Shown: positions 1 to 7,194 of the stretch, piece after piece
Position numbering within the stretch: position 1 is the first letter of the stretch
How the letters are laid out: each line of letters opens with the position of its first letter
Source of the DNA: an uncultured Actinomycetota bacterium
GTDB taxonomy: Bacteria > Actinomycetota > Actinomycetes > S36-B12 > GCA-2699445
Assembly: GCA_963766005.1 (NCBI GenBank)
Contig: CAVXYG010000001.1
Location: forward strand, 2,410 to 66,409
Length of the DNA: 64,000 nt
Direction of reading: 5' to 3'
Notes under the pieces: generated by a model
Seen by the model: the letters and a program-made list of their open reading frames with translations, nothing else
The model's database searches: none
Told to the model about the DNA's origin: nothing
Program-made: the position numbers and the translations under genes

Positions 1-2077
1 GGGTGCCGCCGGCGCCACGGCCGTCCCGGCTTCCGGGGGCGCCGCCGGACCGCGGCAGGCCTCCGCGACGACCGCCCGTGCGGCAGCGGCGGCGATCCCG
101 GCCCGCTCGGCGAGCAGGCCCGCCAGCGCGACCCGCTGCGGCGGGGTCAGCCCTCCCGCGGCGGCGACCGCGGCCCGGGCCGCGGCGACCCGGCCCTCGG
201 CGGTGGCGGCGGGCGGGTGGGCGGCCAGGAGGGCCTCGGCGTGCACGATGCCGCCGGGCCGGGCCGCTGCCAGCAGGCCGCGGACCGCGCCGGCCCCGCC
301 GGCGGCGTACACGTCGGCGAGGTCCGTCCCTGCCGGGGCGGCGGCCGCGGCCGGGTGGGGGTCGCCGCGGCCGGCGAGCATGGCCAGGGTGCGCGCCAGC
401 GCCGCGGTCCCGGCGGGGTCGGCGTCGGGGGCCAGGATCAGGGCCCGCCCGCCGCGGCCGGCCAGGTCGAGGTGGTGGTCGGTGACCGCCGTGCCGCAGG
501 CCGCCACCCCGACGGTGCCGCCGTCGCCGGAGGCGGTGACCGCCAGGGCGTCCCACGGCCCCTCCACCAGGACCAGCGTCGTGGTGCGGTCCGGGTCGAT
601 GTGCTGGGTGCCGAGCAGCAGCCGGCCCTTGGCGAACAGGGCGGTTGCCGGGGTGTTGAGGTACTTGGGCGCGCCGGGGCGGCCGGTGGTGTCCCGGGCG
701 GTGAACCCGACCACGCCGAGGTGGTCGTGGATGGGGAAGGTGATCCTGCCCCGGAACCGGTCGATGAGCCTGCCGCGGCGGGTGGTGGTCGCCACGCCGG
801 CGGCGATCAGGTCGTCGGCGGTGTGCCCGGCGGCGCGGAGGTGGTCGACCAGCCCGGTCCAGCCCGGCGGGGCGTACCCGGCGCCGTAGGCCAGCGCGGC
901 GGCGGTCGTGTGCCCGCGGGCGTCGGCCGCCGCGGCGTACACCGTGCTGCCGGCGGCCTGGGCGACGAACCACGCCTGGGCGTCGGCGGCGACCGCGCGC
1001 AGCCGATCGGCGCCCGGCCCGGCGGCCGCGGCGGCCAGCCGGTCACGGGTGGCCTCGGCATGCGCCGCGGCAGCCTCGGCGGCGGCTGCTGCGGCACTGG
1101 CCCGCGCGGCGAGGCCCGCGGCCCGCCCCGGCTTCCCGGCTGCTGCCGGGTCGCTGGCCTCCAGCAGGGTGCGGGCGGCGGCCAGGACCCGGCCGGCGGT
1201 GCCGGTGACGGCCTGCTCGTCGCGGCCGGCCCAGCCGGCGATGTAGGCGAAGGTGTAGCCGGCGGTGTCCAGCCCGTGGTGGGCGGCGACCAGGTAGGCC
1301 ACGCTCTCGGCCTCGACCTCGATCAGCCCGCGGCAGTCCGGACCCTGGCGCGGCCGGGTCGAGGGGGTCGTGCAGCAGGACGTGCCCGGCTTCGTGCGCC
1401 AGGGTCTTCACGGCCTGGGCGTCGTCGACGTCGCCGCGCACGGTGACGGTGCGCTGGGCGTGGTCGGTGACGCCGTTGGCCCCGCCGATCCCGGCCGGCC
1501 CGGGGCAGCGTCCGACCGTGAACCCGCGGGCGGCGATGGCGCCGGCCAGGGCGTCCCACAGCCCGGGCGGGGCCTGGCCGGCCAGCAGCTGCGGGCGGGG
1601 CGGGGCCGGCAGCGGGTCCCCGTCGGTCTGGGACACGTCGAACACCGCCGCGGCCCGGAACCCGACGACCGGCCCGCGGCCCCGCGCGGGGGCCGGGTCC
1701 TCCTGGCCGGCGGGCTCGTCGCCGCCGGGGACGTCCTGCTCGCTGCGGGCGCGCCGGGCGGTGACCGGGGCCAGCACCCACAGGCCCTTCTCCCCCTTGC
1801 GGACCTGCCGGCCCATCGCCTGCCAGGCGCCGTACCCGGCGACCAGGGTGGCGTCCGGGTTCTGCGCGGCGATCAGGACCTGGTTGCGGAAGCTGTAGGC
1901 GTGGAACCTCGCCGCGGTGTCCAGCCAGCCCCGCCACGCCTGCCCGTCGCGGATCGCGGCGACCCCGGCGGCGAGCTGGCGGTGCAGCGCCTCCAGGCGT
2001 TCGGTGCGGGCGGCCTCGGCGGCGGCCCGCTGCCCGGGGCCGCGGTCCCGCCGCCGGCGGGGCTCAGCGGCGCCCAT
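1..2077 (-). pseudogene. ArdC-like protein (ssDNA-binding N-domain + HExxH metalloprotease) fused to a DnaG/TOPRIM-type primase domain. As sequenced it carries a +1 frameshift, and its 3' end runs off the window.
   Basis: Track ORF 1043..2077 shows FRNQVLIAAQ...WQAMGRQVRKGEKG (ArdC N-domain) and HEAGHVLLH. My own translation of the minus strand from ~1338 to 1 in the +1 frame gives EVEAESVAYLVAAHHGLD...RLIDRFRGRITFPIHD...PKYLNTPATALFAKG...LVLVEGPWDALAV (primase/TOPRIM-like) with no stop. Confidence 0.7.
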
Positions 2078-2222
2078 CGCCGGATTCGAGCAGGTCGATG
2101 ACGACGTCGGTCAGCGCGTCGATGGTGGCCTGCTGGGCCGCCACCGCCCGCTGCAGCGCGCCGAGCTGGCTCTGCAGGTCGGCCAGCACCGGGATCAGGT
2201 CGATCGTCGGGGTGTCGCTCAT
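2064..2222 (-). CDS. Small hypothetical protein (52 aa, coiled-coil-like)
   Basis: Below the track cutoff, so translated by hand: MSDTPTIDLIPVLADLQSQLGALQRAVAAQQATIDALTDVVIDLLESGDGRR. A strong GAAGGAGG RBS lies upstream. Its 3' end overlaps the start of the ArdC-like gene. Confidence 0.5.
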   Translation of the reverse strand: MSDTPTIDLIPVLADLQSQLGALQRAVAAQQATIDALTDVVIDLLESGDGRR

Positions 2223-2235
2223 GTCCTTGCCTCCT

Positions 2236-2769
2236 TCAGCGGGCCGCGGTCCGGGCGCGGGACGCGGCCGGGATGGTCACGGCCGCCGGCGCCGCGGCGG
2301 CGGCCGGCGGGCGGGCCGTCCGCGTCGCGGCGGCGGGCGGCGGGGGCCCGAAGGCCGCGCACTCCTCCGGGTCGATCTGGGCCAGCGCCGCGGCCCAGGC
2401 CCCCGGGGCGTGGCCGCGGTCGGCGATGCGGCCCAGCAGGTCCGCCATCCGGTGCGCGGGGTCCTCCGGCGGGACGGCGGCCCACATGGCCGCAGGTCCC
2501 TCGGCTGCGGGGTCCTGCATCCAGCGGGCCGCCCCGAGCACGGTCAGCGGGCCGTGGACCGAGTGCTGCCCGGTGCCGGCGGCGTGCAGGTACGCGGACT
2601 CGGCGGCCCGCTCCAGCCCGGCCCAGTCCCCCGACCGGGCGGCCAGGACCAGCAGCGCGTCGCGCATGCCCCGGTGGTTGCAGATCGCGGCCAGGTCAGC
2701 GGCCGCCGCCGAGGGGTCGGCGAGTGCGGCGGCGGTGCGCGCCACCAATTCGGACGGTTCTGCGCTCAT
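2236..2769 (-). CDS. Hypothetical protein (177 aa)
   Basis: Uses the internal ATG of track ORF 2236..2949, preceded by AAGGAGAG. GC3-rich coding-like composition. No family recognised. Confidence 0.55.
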   Translation of the reverse strand: MSAEPSELVARTAAALADPSAAAADLAAICNHRGMRDALLVLAARSGDWAGLERAAESAYLHAAGTGQHSVHGPLTVLGAARWMQDPAAEGPAAMWAAVPPEDPAHRMADLLGRIADRGHAPGAWAAALAQIDPEECAAFGPPPPAAATRTARPPAAAAAPAAVTIPAASRARTAAR

Positions 2770-2977
2770 GGTTCTCTCCTTCATCGGTTGGTGGTCCGGC
2801 CGCGGGACGCGGTCGGGGTGGTCGTTGCCGCCGGTGCGGCGGCGGCCTGTGGCCGTGCCGTCCGAGGCAGCGGGTGCCGGGCCCGTGCGGCGGGTCCGCG
2901 GCCAGCGCGCCGTGCACCAGCCGGCAGTGCACCGCCCGGCAGCCGTCATGGACGTGGACGGTCACGGCGCCGCTCAC
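2696..2977 (-). CDS. Possible small His/Cys-rich protein (VSGAVTVHVHDGCRAVHCRLVHG...). The 3' extent is doubtful.
   Basis: A GTG start forms a GTGA overlap with the stop of the 49-aa ORF upstream. It is the tail of track ORF 2696..3076. It overlaps the next gene by 74 nt, so the real stop may have been lost to an indel. Confidence 0.25.
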   Translation of the reverse strand: MSGAVTVHVHDGCRAVHCRLVHGALAADPPHGPGTRCLGRHGHRPPPHRRQRPPRPRPAAGPPTDEGENHERRTVRIGGAHRRRTRRPLGGGR

Positions 2978-3123
2978 CGCCGCTCCCCGCTTCCGGCGGC
3001 GGCGATGACCTCGGCCCGCCACAGCCCGACGATGATGGCCGCGTCGTCGTCGGCGCCCGCCTGGGCGGCCGCCCACCAGCGCGCCAGCATGTCGTTGATG
3101 GGTTCCACGCCGGGGCCGCTCAT
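2974..3123 (-). CDS. Small hypothetical protein (49 aa)
   Basis: ATG at 3123 forms an ATGA overlap with the stop of the 184-aa ORF. Sequence: MSGPGVEPINDMLARWWAAAQAGADDDAAIIVGLWRAEVIAAAGSGERR. Confidence 0.45.
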   Translation of the reverse strand: MSGPGVEPINDMLARWWAAAQAGADDDAAIIVGLWRAEVIAAAGSGERR

Positions 3124-3674
3124 CGCACGCCCATCCCTGCCCGTCCGTGCGCGCGCGGCGGTACGGCGGCGGCCGAGGTGGCCGCGGGCAGGGCGGTGCG
3201 CTTCGACTCGTCCTGCACCGGCCCGGCCAGCAGCGCCCGCACGGACTGGATGCGGGCCAGGTACCGCTCGTCGTCGCCGGTGCGGCCGGCGGGGTCGACC
3301 CATGCGGCGGGCACCATCACCTCGTGCCCGACGTGGGCGCCCTCGACGAGCCCGGTCTGCGGGGTGTAGGCCAGCCACAGCCCCGGCTGCTCGGTCTCCG
3401 GGGACAGGAACACCTGCCAGCGGGCGCTCGGTGCGGCCTCGACGAGGGCGGCGTCGTCGAACCAGTTGACCTCCTGCAGCTCGATCGACCCGCTGTCCAG
3501 TCCGGCCCATCCCCCTCGCGGCCGCAGCGCTCCGCCGTCCGCGTCCACGGCCAGCGGGACGGGACGGTCGTCGGGCCCGAACAGCTGGTCGACGTGCGCG
3601 GCGATCTCGCGGCACGCCATCACTGCCGCCAGTCCGCCTCGGACCTCCAGCACCGCTCCCCCGCGGCTAGTCAT
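3120..3674 (-). CDS. Hypothetical protein (184 aa)
   Basis: Track ORF 3120..3674 has non-repetitive, protein-like composition and is coupled to both neighbours. No family recognised. Confidence 0.6.
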   Translation of the reverse strand: MTSRGGAVLEVRGGLAAVMACREIAAHVDQLFGPDDRPVPLAVDADGGALRPRGGWAGLDSGSIELQEVNWFDDAALVEAAPSARWQVFLSPETEQPGLWLAYTPQTGLVEGAHVGHEVMVPAAWVDPAGRTGDDERYLARIQSVRALLAGPVQDESKRTALPAATSAAAVPPRAHGRAGMGVR

Positions 3675-3834
3675 CGCGCCGGCCCCGGCGGCGCTCGGCG
3701 GCCAGGGCCTCGGTCAGTTCCTCCACCGCGCTGGGCCGCGACTCGTTGGCGTCGGCCCACGCTTCGGCCTCGCCGTCGGTGGTCCACGGGGCGGCGGCGG
3801 GCCGCCACCCCAGCTCCTGCGGTTCCTCGCTCAT
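3667..3834 (-). CDS. Small acidic hypothetical protein (55 aa)
   Basis: ATG at 3834 is preceded by AAGGAGGGAAGG. Sequence starts MSEEPQELGWRPAAAPWTTDGEAEAWADANESRPSAVEELTEALAAERRRGRRDD. It overlaps the next start by 8 nt. Confidence 0.5.
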   Translation of the reverse strand: MSEEPQELGWRPAAAPWTTDGEAEAWADANESRPSAVEELTEALAAERRRGRRDD

Positions 3835-3851
3835 CGGGTTCCTTCCCTCCT

Positions 3852-4295
3852 TCACAGGCCCGGCCCCCGGCTGGCGCCGAGGGTCCGGGCGGGGGCGGGG
3901 GCCGCCGGTGCGGCGGTCCGGGGGCCGCCCGGGACGTAGGGGTGGTGCGGGTCTGCCTGGACGGCGCCGCCGGCCGGCAGGTGGTCGCTGCCGGTGGTCC
4001 GGCCGATCGGGGTGCGGCGCATGGCGGATCCTTCCTGCCGCGGCGGCGGGCGCAGCGCCCATGCCTGTGCGCGGTCCCCGCCGCGGCCGTCGCCGCACAC
4101 CTCGCAGCGGGCCCACGAGAAGCCGGCCCCGCCGCCGCCGGGCTCCAGGCGCCACCCTTCGGCGGCCCACCCGGCGATCCCGCCGGTGATGGCCGCGGCC
4201 CGGTCGGGGCCGAGGTCGTCGGGCAGCCCGTTCGCCAGGGCGAGCTCGCAGTCGGTGCACACCTCGACCTCGGCCTGCTCCCACGGGTCGTTCAT
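3852..4295 (-). CDS. Hypothetical protein with two CxxC pairs (zinc-ribbon-like), 147 aa
   Basis: Uses the internal ATG of track ORF 3852..5087. Sequence MNDPWEQAEVEVCTDCELALANG...WARCEVCGDG. Confidence 0.6.
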   Translation of the reverse strand: MNDPWEQAEVEVCTDCELALANGLPDDLGPDRAAAITGGIAGWAAEGWRLEPGGGGAGFSWARCEVCGDGRGGDRAQAWALRPPPRQEGSAMRRTPIGRTTGSDHLPAGGAVQADPHHPYVPGGPRTAAPAAPAPARTLGASRGPGL

Positions 4296-4633
4296 GGCCG
4301 GCCCGCCTGCTTCGCGGCCGAGGCGCGGCCGCGGGCCGGCGCGGCCGGGGCGGCGGCGGTGCTCGGTGCGGCGGTCCGCGGCGGGACCCGCGCCGGGTCG
4401 GTGGCCTTCATCGCGACGGCCTCGATGTCCGCCAACTGGTAGCCGGTGTCCGCGACCAGCAGGCCCAGCCACTCGGCGCCGCCCGGGTTGGGGGTGCGCC
4501 AGGTGGAGGTCGCCAGGGACCGCTCGGCGGCGTCGGCGGCCGCCGCCAGCAGTTGCCCGACGACCCTGTTGGCGGGTGCGGCAGGATCGGTGGTGCGCGG
4601 GCCGGCCAGTCGCCCCGGAGTGCGCCTGGCCCG
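4292..4633 (-). CDS. Coding-like ORF (113 codons) with no canonical start codon in its first 67 codons. It directly follows the rseP stop codon in the same frame.
   Basis: Hand translation: RARRTPGRLAGPRTTDPAAPANRVVGQLLAAAADAAERSLATSTWRTPNPGGAEWLGLLVADTGYQLADIEAVAMKATDPARVPP...KQAGRP. Its TGA overlaps the ATG at 4295 (ATGA). The first ATG/GTG/TTG is TTG at codon 68. Confidence 0.35.
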   Translation of the reverse strand, partial: RARRTPGRLAGPRTTDPAAPANRVVGQLLAAAADAAERSLATSTWRTPNPGGAEWLGLLVADTGYQLADIEAVAMKATDPARVPPRTAAPSTAAAPAAPARGRASAAKQAGRP

Positions 4634-5992
4634 CTACCCCGTCAGCGTGATCGGCTTCACCAGGTCGGCCCAGATCACGATGATGCCCGAGGCGATGAGC
4701 ACCACGGCCACGGCATAGGTCACCGGCAGCATCCGCGCCGTATCGACCGGTCCGGGGTCCGCCGCGCCCCGGAGGAGGGCCAGTCTGCGGCGCACCCCCT
4801 CGTACCCGGCGGCAGCGACGTGCCCGCCGTCCAGCGGCAGCAGCGGCAGCAGGTTGAACAGGAAGAGGAAGAGGTTCAGCGAGGCGGCCAGCCCGATGAA
4901 CGCCGCGGCCTTCGCCTTGATGGGCTCGTCGAGGGCGGCGATCTCGCCACCGATCCGGGAGACGCCGACCACGCCGACCGGGCCGTTGGGATCCCGCTCC
5001 CCGCCGGAGATGAGGGTACCGGTGAGTTCCACCAGCCGGACCGGCAGCGAGATGAGCGCCTCGACCGATCGGACGGTCAGGTCCCACATGTAGCCGGGCA
5101 CCGCTACCAGCGACATCGGCACATAGGCGGCATCCGGGCGTACTCCGACGAACGCCCGAACCTGTGTCTCCCCCGTCGGTTGGCCGTCCTCGTCGAGGAC
5201 CGGGTACACGGCCTCGGCCAACGTCAGGGTCGTCGCACGCGGCTGCCCGCCGCGATCCAGATCGACCGTGACGGTGTCGCCGGGGCGGGCGTCGGCCAAC
5301 ACGGCGGTGAGGTCGTCCCAGGTCGACACCGGCGCTCCCTCCAGCGCCACGACGACATCGCCGACCTCGATATCCGCCGCGACGGCGGGGCTGGGCTCAG
5401 CATCGCAGGCGCCCCCCGGCAGCGGCTCGCCGAACGGCTCCCCCGCCGTCGGCACGCAGGGGACCACCTCGCGCACGGCGGTCGTGGTCTGCGGCGTTCC
5501 GATGCCCACCAGGAGCACGGCGAACAGGGCCGTGGCCAGGATCAGGTTCATGGCGGGGCCGGCCATCATGACGACCATGCGCCGGCGGACCGGCAGCTTG
5601 TAGAACACCCGGTCCTCGTCGCCGGGCTCGATCTCCACCATCGATTGGTCCCGCGCCTGCTCGACCATCGTGGCGAAGCGGCCTGTGGTGCTGGCCGGGA
5701 CCATGCCGGGCGGCGCGTCCTTCCCCGGCGGCAGCATGCCGATGATGCGGACGTAGCCGCCCACGGGGATCGCTTTGAGGCCGTAGACCGTCTCGCCGCG
5801 GGCCCTGGTGAAGAGCTTCGGCCCGAAACCGACCATGAACTCGGTGACTTTCACGCCGTAGCGCTTGGCCGTCACGAAGTGGCCCCACTCGTGGAAGGCG
5901 ATCGAGAAGCCGATCACGAGCACGAAGATGGTGATGCCGACCACATTGGCCGCGATGTCGGTCATGAGCGCCCTTCTGCCCTTGTCCCCCAT
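4634..5992 (-). CDS. rseP: Site-2 protease, M50-family zinc metalloprotease (RseP/Rip1 type)
   Basis: Track ORF 4634..5992 has HEWGH in the first TM segment, a PDZ-like middle region and multiple TM segments. The internal ATG at 5965 would form an ATGA overlap with the dxr stop and may be the true start. Confidence 0.9.
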
Positions 5993-7194
5993 GATGCGGC
6001 CTCGGCACGTGCTTGCGCATCAGCGGCGAGCACGTCGCCGATGTCGCCGATCGCCGCGTCGCTGCGGAAGCCGCCGTCGGTGGCCAAATGCGCGTCCAGG
6101 ACATCGGCGATGACGGCGACGATGTCGAGGTAGGCGATGTCACCGGCCAGGAACCGCTCGACGGCGGCCTCGTTCGCCGCGTTGAACACCGCCGGTGCCG
6201 TTCCCCCCGCGGCTCCGGCGCGCCGGGCCAGCTGGACGGCGGGGAAGGCGCCGTGGTCGATCGGGGCGAAGTCCCATCGGGCTGAGCGGGTCCAGTCGAT
6301 CGGTGCGATAGCGCCGGGCACCCGTTCGGGCCAGGACAGCCCCAGCGCGATCGGCAGCCGCATGTCCGGCGGGCTGGCCTGGGCGATGCTGGAGCCGTCG
6401 GCGAACTCCACGATCGAGTGGACGATCGACTGCGGATGCACCACCGCCTCGATCCGGTCCATCGGCACCCCGAACAGCAGATGCGCCTCGATGATCTCCA
6501 GCCCCTTGTTCACCAGGGTCGAGGAGTTGATGGTGACCAGCGGACCCATGCTCCAGGTCGGGTGGGCCAGAGCCTGCTCGGGCGTGACGCCGTGGAGCTG
6601 GTCGCGGGTGCGGCCCCGGAACGGGCCCCCGCTGGCGGTGAGGACCAGTCGCGCGACCTCGTCCGGGGCACCGGCGCGCAGCGCTTGCGCCAACGCCGAG
6701 TGCTCCGAGTCCACCGGCACGATCTGGCCAGGACCGGCCAGGCGGCGCACGAGCGGCCCGGCGATGATGAGCGACTCCTTGTTCGCCAGGGCGAGCGTGG
6801 TCCCGGACCTCAGCGCCGCCAGGGTCGAGGGCAGGCCGGCGGCGCCGGCGAGACCGTTGAGCACGACGTCGGCGGGAGCCGCGGCGATCGCTGCGACCGC
6901 CTCGGGGCCTTCGTCGATACGCACGGCGGATCCGCCTCGCGAAGCCAGCGCATCGTGCACCCTGACTGCGGCATCGGCATCGGCTACCGCGATGCGCCCG
7001 ACATCGAAGGCCAGCGCCTGCCGAGCCAATGCGTCCGGCCGCCGGCCGGTCGCCGCCAGCCCCCCGACCCGGAAACGGTCGCGATTGCGCGCGATGACAT
7101 CGAGGGCCTGCGTCCCGATCGATCCGGTGGAGCCGAGGATCGTGACGCTGCGGCGAGCTGGCGTAGCCATGGCTCCATTGTGGTGCAGGGCCAA
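5962..7194 (-). CDS. dxr: 1-deoxy-D-xylulose-5-phosphate reductoisomerase
   Basis: Track ORF has an [18 protein letters not shown]-binding N-terminus and LANKESL and PVDSEHSA motifs. The start may be the ATG at 7170. Confidence 0.92.

Follow-up and report, generated by a model that had tools for sequence, protein, structure and literature searches.

ArdC of the IncW plasmid R388 is a single-stranded DNA (ssDNA)-binding protein with a metalloprotease domain, which acts in the recipient cell (PMC7213743). Polyvalent proteins that combine an ArdC-N domain, a peptidase and a Toprim primase are typical of conjugative elements of the type IV secretion system (T4SS) type; they were reported from such elements only, and never from phages (Iyer et al. 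2017, PMC5512222). Here, we describe a gene of this kind, together with the chain of small genes that precedes it, at the left end of a 64-kb stretch of DNA (contig CAVXYG010000001.1; in the following, the window) from an uncultured high-GC actinobacterium. The evidence supports the view that this block is foreign, plasmid-like DNA or DNA of an integrative and conjugative element (ICE), and that it occupies the position that ispG holds behind the site-2 protease gene rseP in relatives of the host. With moderate confidence, we assign window positions 1-4601 to the establishment module of a conjugative plasmid or ICE from actinobacteria, as a truncated and probably immobile fragment that was captured after rseP in a non-site-specific event. 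If the junction is real, the locus represents a recent plasmid capture of this kind inside a conserved housekeeping cluster.

The gene shares with ArdC of R388/pSa (PMC7213743) an N-terminal ArdC-N domain (PF08401), followed by a region with an HExxH (here HEAGH) motif, in the window gene a putative metallopeptidase; both genes belong to a conjugative element, and both products are expected to act early in the recipient. Unlike that ArdC, however, the product of the window gene continues into a C-terminal primase of the DnaG type; the gene stems from a high-GC member of the Actinomycetota and is frameshifted, and an anti-restriction role would be ascribed to it by analogy. Polyvalent proteins of conjugative elements, such as TraC1 of RP4 (Iyer et al. 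2017, PMC5512222), follow the same logic, in which a header that binds ssDNA precedes a peptidase (putative in the window protein) and a primase of the DnaG/Toprim kind. In comparison, the family described here is actinobacterial, has a length of ~700 aa and comes with a conserved upstream companion gene of 52-59 aa.

In metagenomes, this family is widespread and has more than 300 homologs of the ArdC-primase. On the DNA level, the ArdC part of the window gene is ~70% identical to ArdC-like genes on plasmids of Rhodococcus, Gordonia, Janibacter, Xylanimonas and other actinobacteria. We inspected two of these plasmid neighborhoods, in Janibacter melonis (NZ_CP046475.1) and in Xylanimonas allomyrinae (NZ_CP035496.1), the latter of which is typed as conjugative in PLSDB (MOBP, MPF_T). 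In both, small hypothetical genes on the same strand precede ArdC, and ParA/ParB are encoded nearby, but their ArdC-like genes are only ~300 aa long and, unlike the window gene, lack the primase. A further locus, in the chromosome of Microlunatus sp. Gsoil 973 (CP046122.1; L121), combines a TrwC/MobF relaxase, a 56-aa homolog of the companion protein (p52 in the following) and a 700-aa ArdC-primase (44% identity); the module therefore occurs in integrated elements, too. L121 differs from the window in its adjacent relaxase, its intact genes and its other cargo, and it bears no relation to the rseP-ispG site. As a separate observation, the Toprim/primase part (window 304-871) shows 66-68% DNA identity to plasmid genes of Nocardioides and Pimelobacter that carry the annotation 'MobF family relaxase', a similarity that suggests relaxase-primase fusions in those plasmids.

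The block and its ArdC-primase gene

An exact look-up of the 52-aa protein led to other assemblies, among them a plasmid-like metagenome contig of 39 kb (ENA ERZ25039600, contig_90453; L001). Over 3.2 kb (window 1392-4601), both sequences are 99.5% identical, with 15 substitutions and no gaps, and they share the same gene chain from p147 to ArdC (for gene names, see Table 1). The order in L001 is ParA, two unknown genes, a 477-aa protein, a 283-aa gene, DUF4192 and ParB_N (494 aa), followed by p147, p55, p184, p49, p177, p52 and ArdC. The 477-aa protein is relaxase-like by a weak match to the MobA/VirD2 nuclease family (PF03432, 23.8 bits against a cut-off of 24.6). L001 thus differs from the window in that its parB-like gene is complete and is preceded by relaxase-like, DUF4192 and ParA genes.

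The element is found at ≥99% identity in at least four other assemblies, once in the form of this plasmid-like contig. Given the 99.5% identity to free-standing copies in other samples, its acquisition by the host would be recent. In clusters built at 90% identity, p184, p147, p55, p49, p177 and p52 each have a member on the 171,926-bp source contig of the window. By contrast, the 261-aa, 276-aa, 477-aa, 283-aa and DUF4192 proteins of L001 are singletons, and its ParB-like protein clusters solely with a 1.5-kb contig. None of these six upstream proteins has a relative of ≥90% identity on the source contig (more divergent genes are not covered by this comparison). The source contig consequently carries the block from the truncated parB-like gene, parB', to the ArdC-primase gene without the partition and relaxase side of the element.

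The composition of the block sets it apart from its surroundings. Its GC content is ~80% from window position 1 to ~4600, compared to ~72% in the host DNA to the right; at the first and third codon positions, element genes have values (GC1 and GC3) of 0.74-0.84 and 0.91-0.98, respectively, and host genes 0.64-0.79 and 0.85-0.93. An earlier reading of the window, made from the letters alone (the sequence-only reading), had described everything left of rseP as a single minus-strand chain of about ten open reading frames (ORFs), linked by five start/stop overlaps. The codon-position GC plot bears out the chain, as it shows minus-strand coding across all of window 1-4633 with the frame switching at gene boundaries, but the number of coding units is eight, all on the minus strand. 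Four of the overlaps were also confirmed: an ATGA at 4295/4292, formed by the parB' stop and the p147 start, and overlaps of 8 nt at 3674/3667 (p55 stop, p184 start), 4 nt at 3123/3120 (p184 stop, p49 start) and 14 nt at 2077/2064 (p52 stop, ArdC-primase start). The fifth, at 2977/2974, had to be dropped together with the ORF starting at 2977: in its place, gene calls in L001 and in a second copy, the Logan contig L002, give a gene at 2236-2769 plus a 204-nt spacer, and L002 has an indel at 2809, inside the proposed ORF.

The last gene of the chain had been recognized as ArdC-like with a primase, and the domains were indeed detected, in a gene whose reading frame changes at 1345 and is thereby split. 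ArdC-N and the HEAGH motif are encoded in frame A (2077 to ~1346); the remaining peptidase region, the catalytic core of DnaG and Toprim follow in frame B (~1344 to 1). In a Pfam run on the spliced two-frame translation, we obtained matches to ArdC-N (PF08401; E 8.2e-9, 36.2 bits against a cut-off of 22.6) and, for the primase, to DNAG_N (PF08275; E 2.7e-23), Toprim_2 (PF13155; E 1.4e-8) and PF01751 (E 6.7e-6), while Peptidase_M78 (PF06114; 2.7e-4, 21.2 bits) fell just under its cut-off of 22. The HEAGH motif and a downstream EVEAES motif are kept in homologs. Base 1345 is absent from L002, and the frame plot switches at the same point; without this base, the sequence encodes 692 aa, which can be aligned over their full length to intact homologs of 700-711 aa (64-70% identity). 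In the source annotation, the gene is represented by no more than a 448-aa piece of the primase (P0006, 100% identical), so the frameshift is present in the deposited sequence. As this piece ends 14 codons beyond the left window edge, the contig continues leftward.

The sequence-only reading had left open whether the foreign DNA was plasmid/ICE- or prophage-like. L001 and the plasmid matches speak for the former. We found no blastn match to the block in 50,697 phage records and no relative in IMG/VR of P0001, a 70%-identical ArdC-primase homolog, and the matches in PHROGs comprised the ParB-like protein and otherwise just two weak ones to families of unknown function; a prophage is not supported by these results. 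No relaxase, origin of transfer (oriT) or transfer genes linked to the block are present in the window, and the copy as seen is incapable of self-transfer. The element is an ordinary and well-known kind of mobile DNA, mildly novel in its unannotated small proteins, especially p184.

The junction behind rseP

At ~33 nt past the rseP stop, similarity to the element sets in, and it does so inside the parB-like gene. At this end, the matches to L001 and to a relative with 67% ArdC-primase identity, L064, both terminate within 4595-4601 (L064 at 4595), and the ~32-nt spacer that remains matches neither L001 nor any other retrieved locus. No stop codon interrupts the parB' frame between the rseP stop and 4292, and none of the start codons ATG, GTG and TTG occurs in it before 4435. 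parB' corresponds to the 3' end of the 494-aa ParB_N gene of L001 (99.5% identical), of which the first ~390 codons are lost. Intact ParB-like homologs have 490-560 aa and 60-65% identity, which identifies the full-length form in L001 as the natural one. The L001 protein matches phrog_6218 (6e-51) and NF010406, and its ParB N-terminal domain (PF02195), at residues ~11-233, is missing from parB'. The rightmost ORF (4292-4435), previously taken for a separate gene, is accordingly the tail of a start-less frame that encodes the C-terminal ~103 codons of a ParB-like gene. With a ParB tail as the first unit of the chain, the last ORF is also not the only one of a recognizable family, as had been thought.

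In a ParB search, the N-terminal half was not found elsewhere on the source contig. This argues against a simple single crossover within parB, after which the missing 5' part would be expected at the far end, and a circularly permuted integration, which we also considered, is unsupported for the same reason. There is no integrase domain in window 1-4633 (Pfam search), no tRNA gene anywhere in the 64-kb window, and no direct repeat that would qualify as an attachment (att) site, but only repeats at chance level. Since the junction interrupts a gene of the element and is flanked by neither an integrase gene nor an att repeat or tRNA, we infer that part of a plasmid was taken up in an illegitimate capture; these features do not agree with site-specific integration. 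The fragment might have been captured by end-joining at a break in the rseP-ispG spacer, or by integration with a subsequent deletion. The RseP sequence ends in ...VKPITLTG*, as it does in relatives, and this normal C-terminus of the family places the break after an intact rseP, within a short spacer. This is where a tolerated insertion would be expected.

Much of this evidence also bears on the possibility that the block is the right-hand end of an intact, functional ICE, actinomycete ICE (AICE) or prophage between rseP and ispG, with the integrase, relaxase and att site further left. The sequence-only reading had pictured the locus in this way, as an intact island edged at rseP, with its mobility genes outside the window. 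Such an element would be in line with the ArdC-primase relatives that sit in chromosomes beside a TrwC relaxase, with the extension of the contig to the left of the window and with the displacement of ispG. However, its right boundary would run through a parB-like gene, which L001 and the homologs of 60-65% identity have in intact form, and the relaxase-like, DUF4192 and ParA genes, which L001 has on this side, are without a relative of ≥90% identity on the contig. Likewise, the frameshift in the ArdC-primase gene, the lack of phage similarity and the absence of tRNAs and meaningful direct repeats are at odds with a functional element. We therefore regard an intact element as improbable, and the picture of an island whose mobility genes are merely further left was abandoned because its edge falls inside the parB-like gene and its ArdC-primase gene is frameshifted.

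A more serious competitor, which the sequence-only reading had not considered, is an assembly chimera, in which an actinobacterial chromosome of ~72% GC was mis-joined, just after rseP, to a plasmid of ~78-80% GC from the same community. Such an artifact would account for the abrupt GC step and the GC1/GC3 contrast between element and host genes, for a breakpoint in the middle of the parB-like gene without att repeat, integrase or tRNA, and for the absence of the remainder of the L001-type element from the contig. It would also explain why the window contains neither ispG nor a GNAT gene, a patatin-like gene or proS, and why RseP and Dxr are singletons on this contig while the element recurs at ≥99% in at least four other assemblies. 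On the other hand, the join falls exactly into the short spacer after an intact rseP, which is unlikely for a random mis-join at a coding density of ~90%; it spares rseP, as selection on a real event would. Furthermore, the contig is 172 kb long and continues to the left of the window, and at the junction, we see no repeat common to both partners that could have led to a graph mis-join. In view of these points, we treat a chimera as a real possibility, but a less probable one than capture.

Several observations count against the reading as a captured establishment fragment. The 8-point GC jump, the mid-gene breakpoint and the absence of ispG from 64 kb all fit a chimeric contig, too, and so does the finding that the RseP and Dxr of this host are known from this one assembly, the element from several others. 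An exact search of JGI metagenomes with a 60-nt sequence spanning the junction came back empty. The frameshift lies in a G run and could be a homopolymer sequencing error rather than a sign of decay. Finally, no oriT was located, so that the label of a leading region is applied to the block by analogy, and the leading-region or anti-defence roles of the small ORFs are assigned by position, without a family match. The block is best annotated as a truncated remnant of a conjugative element, or else as a suspect join; it should not be labelled an island whose ends await discovery.

Table 1. Coordinates of the block, the junction and the adjacent host genes (window positions, unless a locus is given)
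Feature	Position	Strand	Basis or remark
dxr, host context	5962-7170		
rseP (site-2 protease), complete; host context, last chromosomal gene before the junction	4634-5992	-	452-aa ORF
Junction spacer, ~32 nt	4602-4633	.	Between the rseP stop and the start of element similarity
parB' (ParB/KorB-like, C-terminal part, 5'-truncated)	4292-4601	-	Frame open to 4633; L001 match
p147	3852-4295	-	GC3 frame; gene call in L001
p55, acidic 55-aa protein	3667-3834	-	GC3 frame; gene call in L001
p184	3120-3674	-	
p49, 49-aa protein	2974-3123	-	GC3 frame; gene calls in L001, L002
Non-coding gap, 204 nt, the only sizeable one in the chain	2770-2973	.	
p177, Ala-rich, 177 aa	2236-2769	-	Gene calls in L001, L002, L003
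p52	2064-2222	-	Homologs upstream of ArdC-primase
ArdC-N + putative HEAGH metallopeptidase + DnaG-type primase (Toprim), ~706 aa if repaired	1-2077, and 14 codons past the left edge	-	
Extra base (+ strand C; G of a coding-strand GGG run), shifts the ArdC-primase frame	1345	-	L002 without the base; frame plot
p52 homologs	L064:5459-5638; L065:1072-1248; L121:9824-9994		L121: Microlunatus chromosome, cultured strain

The host side: rseP, dxr and ispG

The positions given for rseP and dxr in the sequence-only reading were correct, as was its statement that ispG is absent where it would be expected: a tblastn search of all 64 kb of the window did not find it, nor did it find the GNAT gene, the patatin-like gene or proS. 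The exact RseP protein is confined to the 171,926-bp source contig, on which RseP and Dxr are both singletons according to the cluster look-up. In eight relatives (L066, L067, L004, L006, L007, L008, L010 and L068), rseP is directly followed by ispG. The closest RseP relatives, all of them with the rseP-ispG order, are encoded on two JGI metagenome contigs (73% identity) and in metagenome-assembled genomes (MAGs) at 68, 60 and 53%; ispG likewise lies right after rseP in a Corynebacterium genome, an Acidimicrobiia MAG and one further metagenome contig. The spacer between both genes measures 30-75 nt in the closest relatives. Downstream of ispG, some or all of the GNAT gene, the patatin-like gene and proS are found where the sequence extends far enough.

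With best RseP identities of 68% in the GTDB scan and 73% in the JGI scan, these comparisons resolve the gene order, but not the base-exact breakpoint. An alignment of the flank to relatives, as had been proposed for delimiting the insertion, therefore succeeded for the rseP-ispG order and, at ≤73% RseP identity, not for the breakpoint itself. ispG is normally essential where the methylerythritol phosphate (MEP) pathway is used, and metabolic inference from this MAG should wait until the missing gene has been located.

L005, a lower-GC Actinomycetota MAG with 57% RseP identity, shows that the adjacency of rseP and ispG is not universal in the phylum, as no ispG is found in the 1 kb after its rseP. 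It is the one observation in favor of the notion that the block consists of native, lineage-specific genes and that ispG is simply located elsewhere in this lineage. Against this stand the rseP-ispG order, shared by the four relatives that are closest (60-73% RseP identity) and by four that are more distant, as well as the 99.5% identity of the block to a plasmid-like contig and the functions of its ArdC-primase and ParB-like genes, which are typical of plasmids. Moreover, the other samples with the block have no recorded RseP or Dxr of ≥90% identity to those of this host. Altogether, a native origin seems very remote to us. In L005, a small membrane-protein ORF takes the place of ispG after rseP (L005:2582-3574).

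A further observation concerns the rseP-ispG spacers of relatives. Three of them (L066:2054-2135, L067:1266-1365 and L004:2538-2617) have the motif TGGATAATCG in common, and a fourth (L006:11305-11375) contains a variant. The motif may be a -10 element of the ispG promoter or another regulatory site; it is absent from the sequence that follows rseP in the window.

The small proteins and the relatives of the element

The sequence-only reading had recognized no family among the small ORFs and had proposed family and structure searches for them. These agree with it for p147, p55, p184, p49 and p177, for which we obtained no match in Pfam, NCBIfam or the functionally annotated PHROGs. For p184 and p147, the PDB sequence search returned nothing usable, and PLSDB yielded no tblastn match. 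p147 has two CxxC pairs in its N-terminal 88 aa, followed by a low-complexity tail; the N-terminal part is 69% identical to a 261-aa protein in L064. The p184 family is rare, with 27 representatives at E ≤ 1e-3 among 1.84 billion proteins, and no Pfam domain is found in 24 of its members. The AlphaFold2 model of p184 is a confident α/β structure (predicted local distance difference test score 87.9, predicted template modeling score 0.79). Foldseek yielded no convincing neighbor for it, the best matches having an E-value of 0.11 against PDB and of 0.005 (template modeling score, TM, 0.36) against BFVD; matches described as 'YubB ferredoxin-like' were dismissed as noise (E ~0.1, TM ~0.3). The p177 protein is identical on the source contig and in L001; in L065, another relative of the element, part of a 357-aa gene matches it with 44% identity.

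In L065, p184-like and p177-like sequences lie in the same frame within one and the same 357-aa gene call (L065:2-1075), and it is possible that this fusion links both proteins functionally. As a general feature, we rejected it, for it is found in this single gene call, and longer members of the p184 family are without p177.

The sixth small protein, p52, has a weak match to SlyX and is, judging from this match and its sequence, probably a coiled coil. Its homologs of 52-59 aa are encoded immediately upstream of the ArdC-primase gene in every element that we examined (the window, L064, L065 and L121), and their end overlaps the ArdC-primase start in the first three; p52 is thus a conserved companion of the ArdC-primase gene. 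The genes of the chain are shuffled among relatives, with p147-like, p52-like and ParB-C-like parts in L064, and p184-like, p177-like and p52-like parts in L065.

Upstream of p52 (2215-2340) and in the non-coding gap (2760-2885), the window contains the two copies of a ~110-nt direct repeat, which are 84% identical. Both end in GAAGGAG, immediately ahead of the start of p52 and p177, respectively, and the repeat may represent a duplicated 5' leader or promoter. A local signal scan found no sigma-70-like promoter or terminator, and the 204-nt spacer has an unexceptional single-strand fold (z = -0.5) and no Rfam match.

The families of the larger proteins suggest how the parts might act in an intact element. 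The ParB-like protein would serve its partition or silencing. In the recipient, the ArdC-N domain might coat the incoming single strand, the HEAGH peptidase might process polyproteins or attack host restriction, and the DnaG/Toprim primase would prime the synthesis of the complementary strand. The coupled small genes, p147, p55, p184, p49, p177 and p52, could then encode early accessories for establishment or anti-defence, a role to which their position and their tight coupling to the ArdC-primase gene point. The small proteins, including p184, are reasonable candidates for such functions. Beyond that, one may ask whether p147 to p52 constitute a new establishment or anti-defence set, with a p184 fold that has no neighbor among solved or predicted viral structures, in a genuine end-joining capture that split an rseP-ispG operon. 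We consider this bolder scenario rather unlikely.

Two relatives of the element carry additional DNA at the ArdC-primase gene. In L001, unlike in the window, DNA with a tyrosine recombinase has inserted into the ArdC gene at the HEAGH codon. This insert (L001:10832-13275) encodes a recombinase of 406 aa (PF00589), followed by another ORF, and the 90% cluster of the recombinase includes fused versions of 830-1232 aa; the insert may be a multi-recombinase transposable unit. In L065, the ArdC-primase relative (70%) is followed by a Dpd-like 7-deazaguanine DNA-modification cluster (L065:3714-13358), which comprises two DndB-like genes, TGT, QueC, a radical-SAM gene, PTPS, DpdD and a DEAD helicase, and looks like defence cargo on the same element family.

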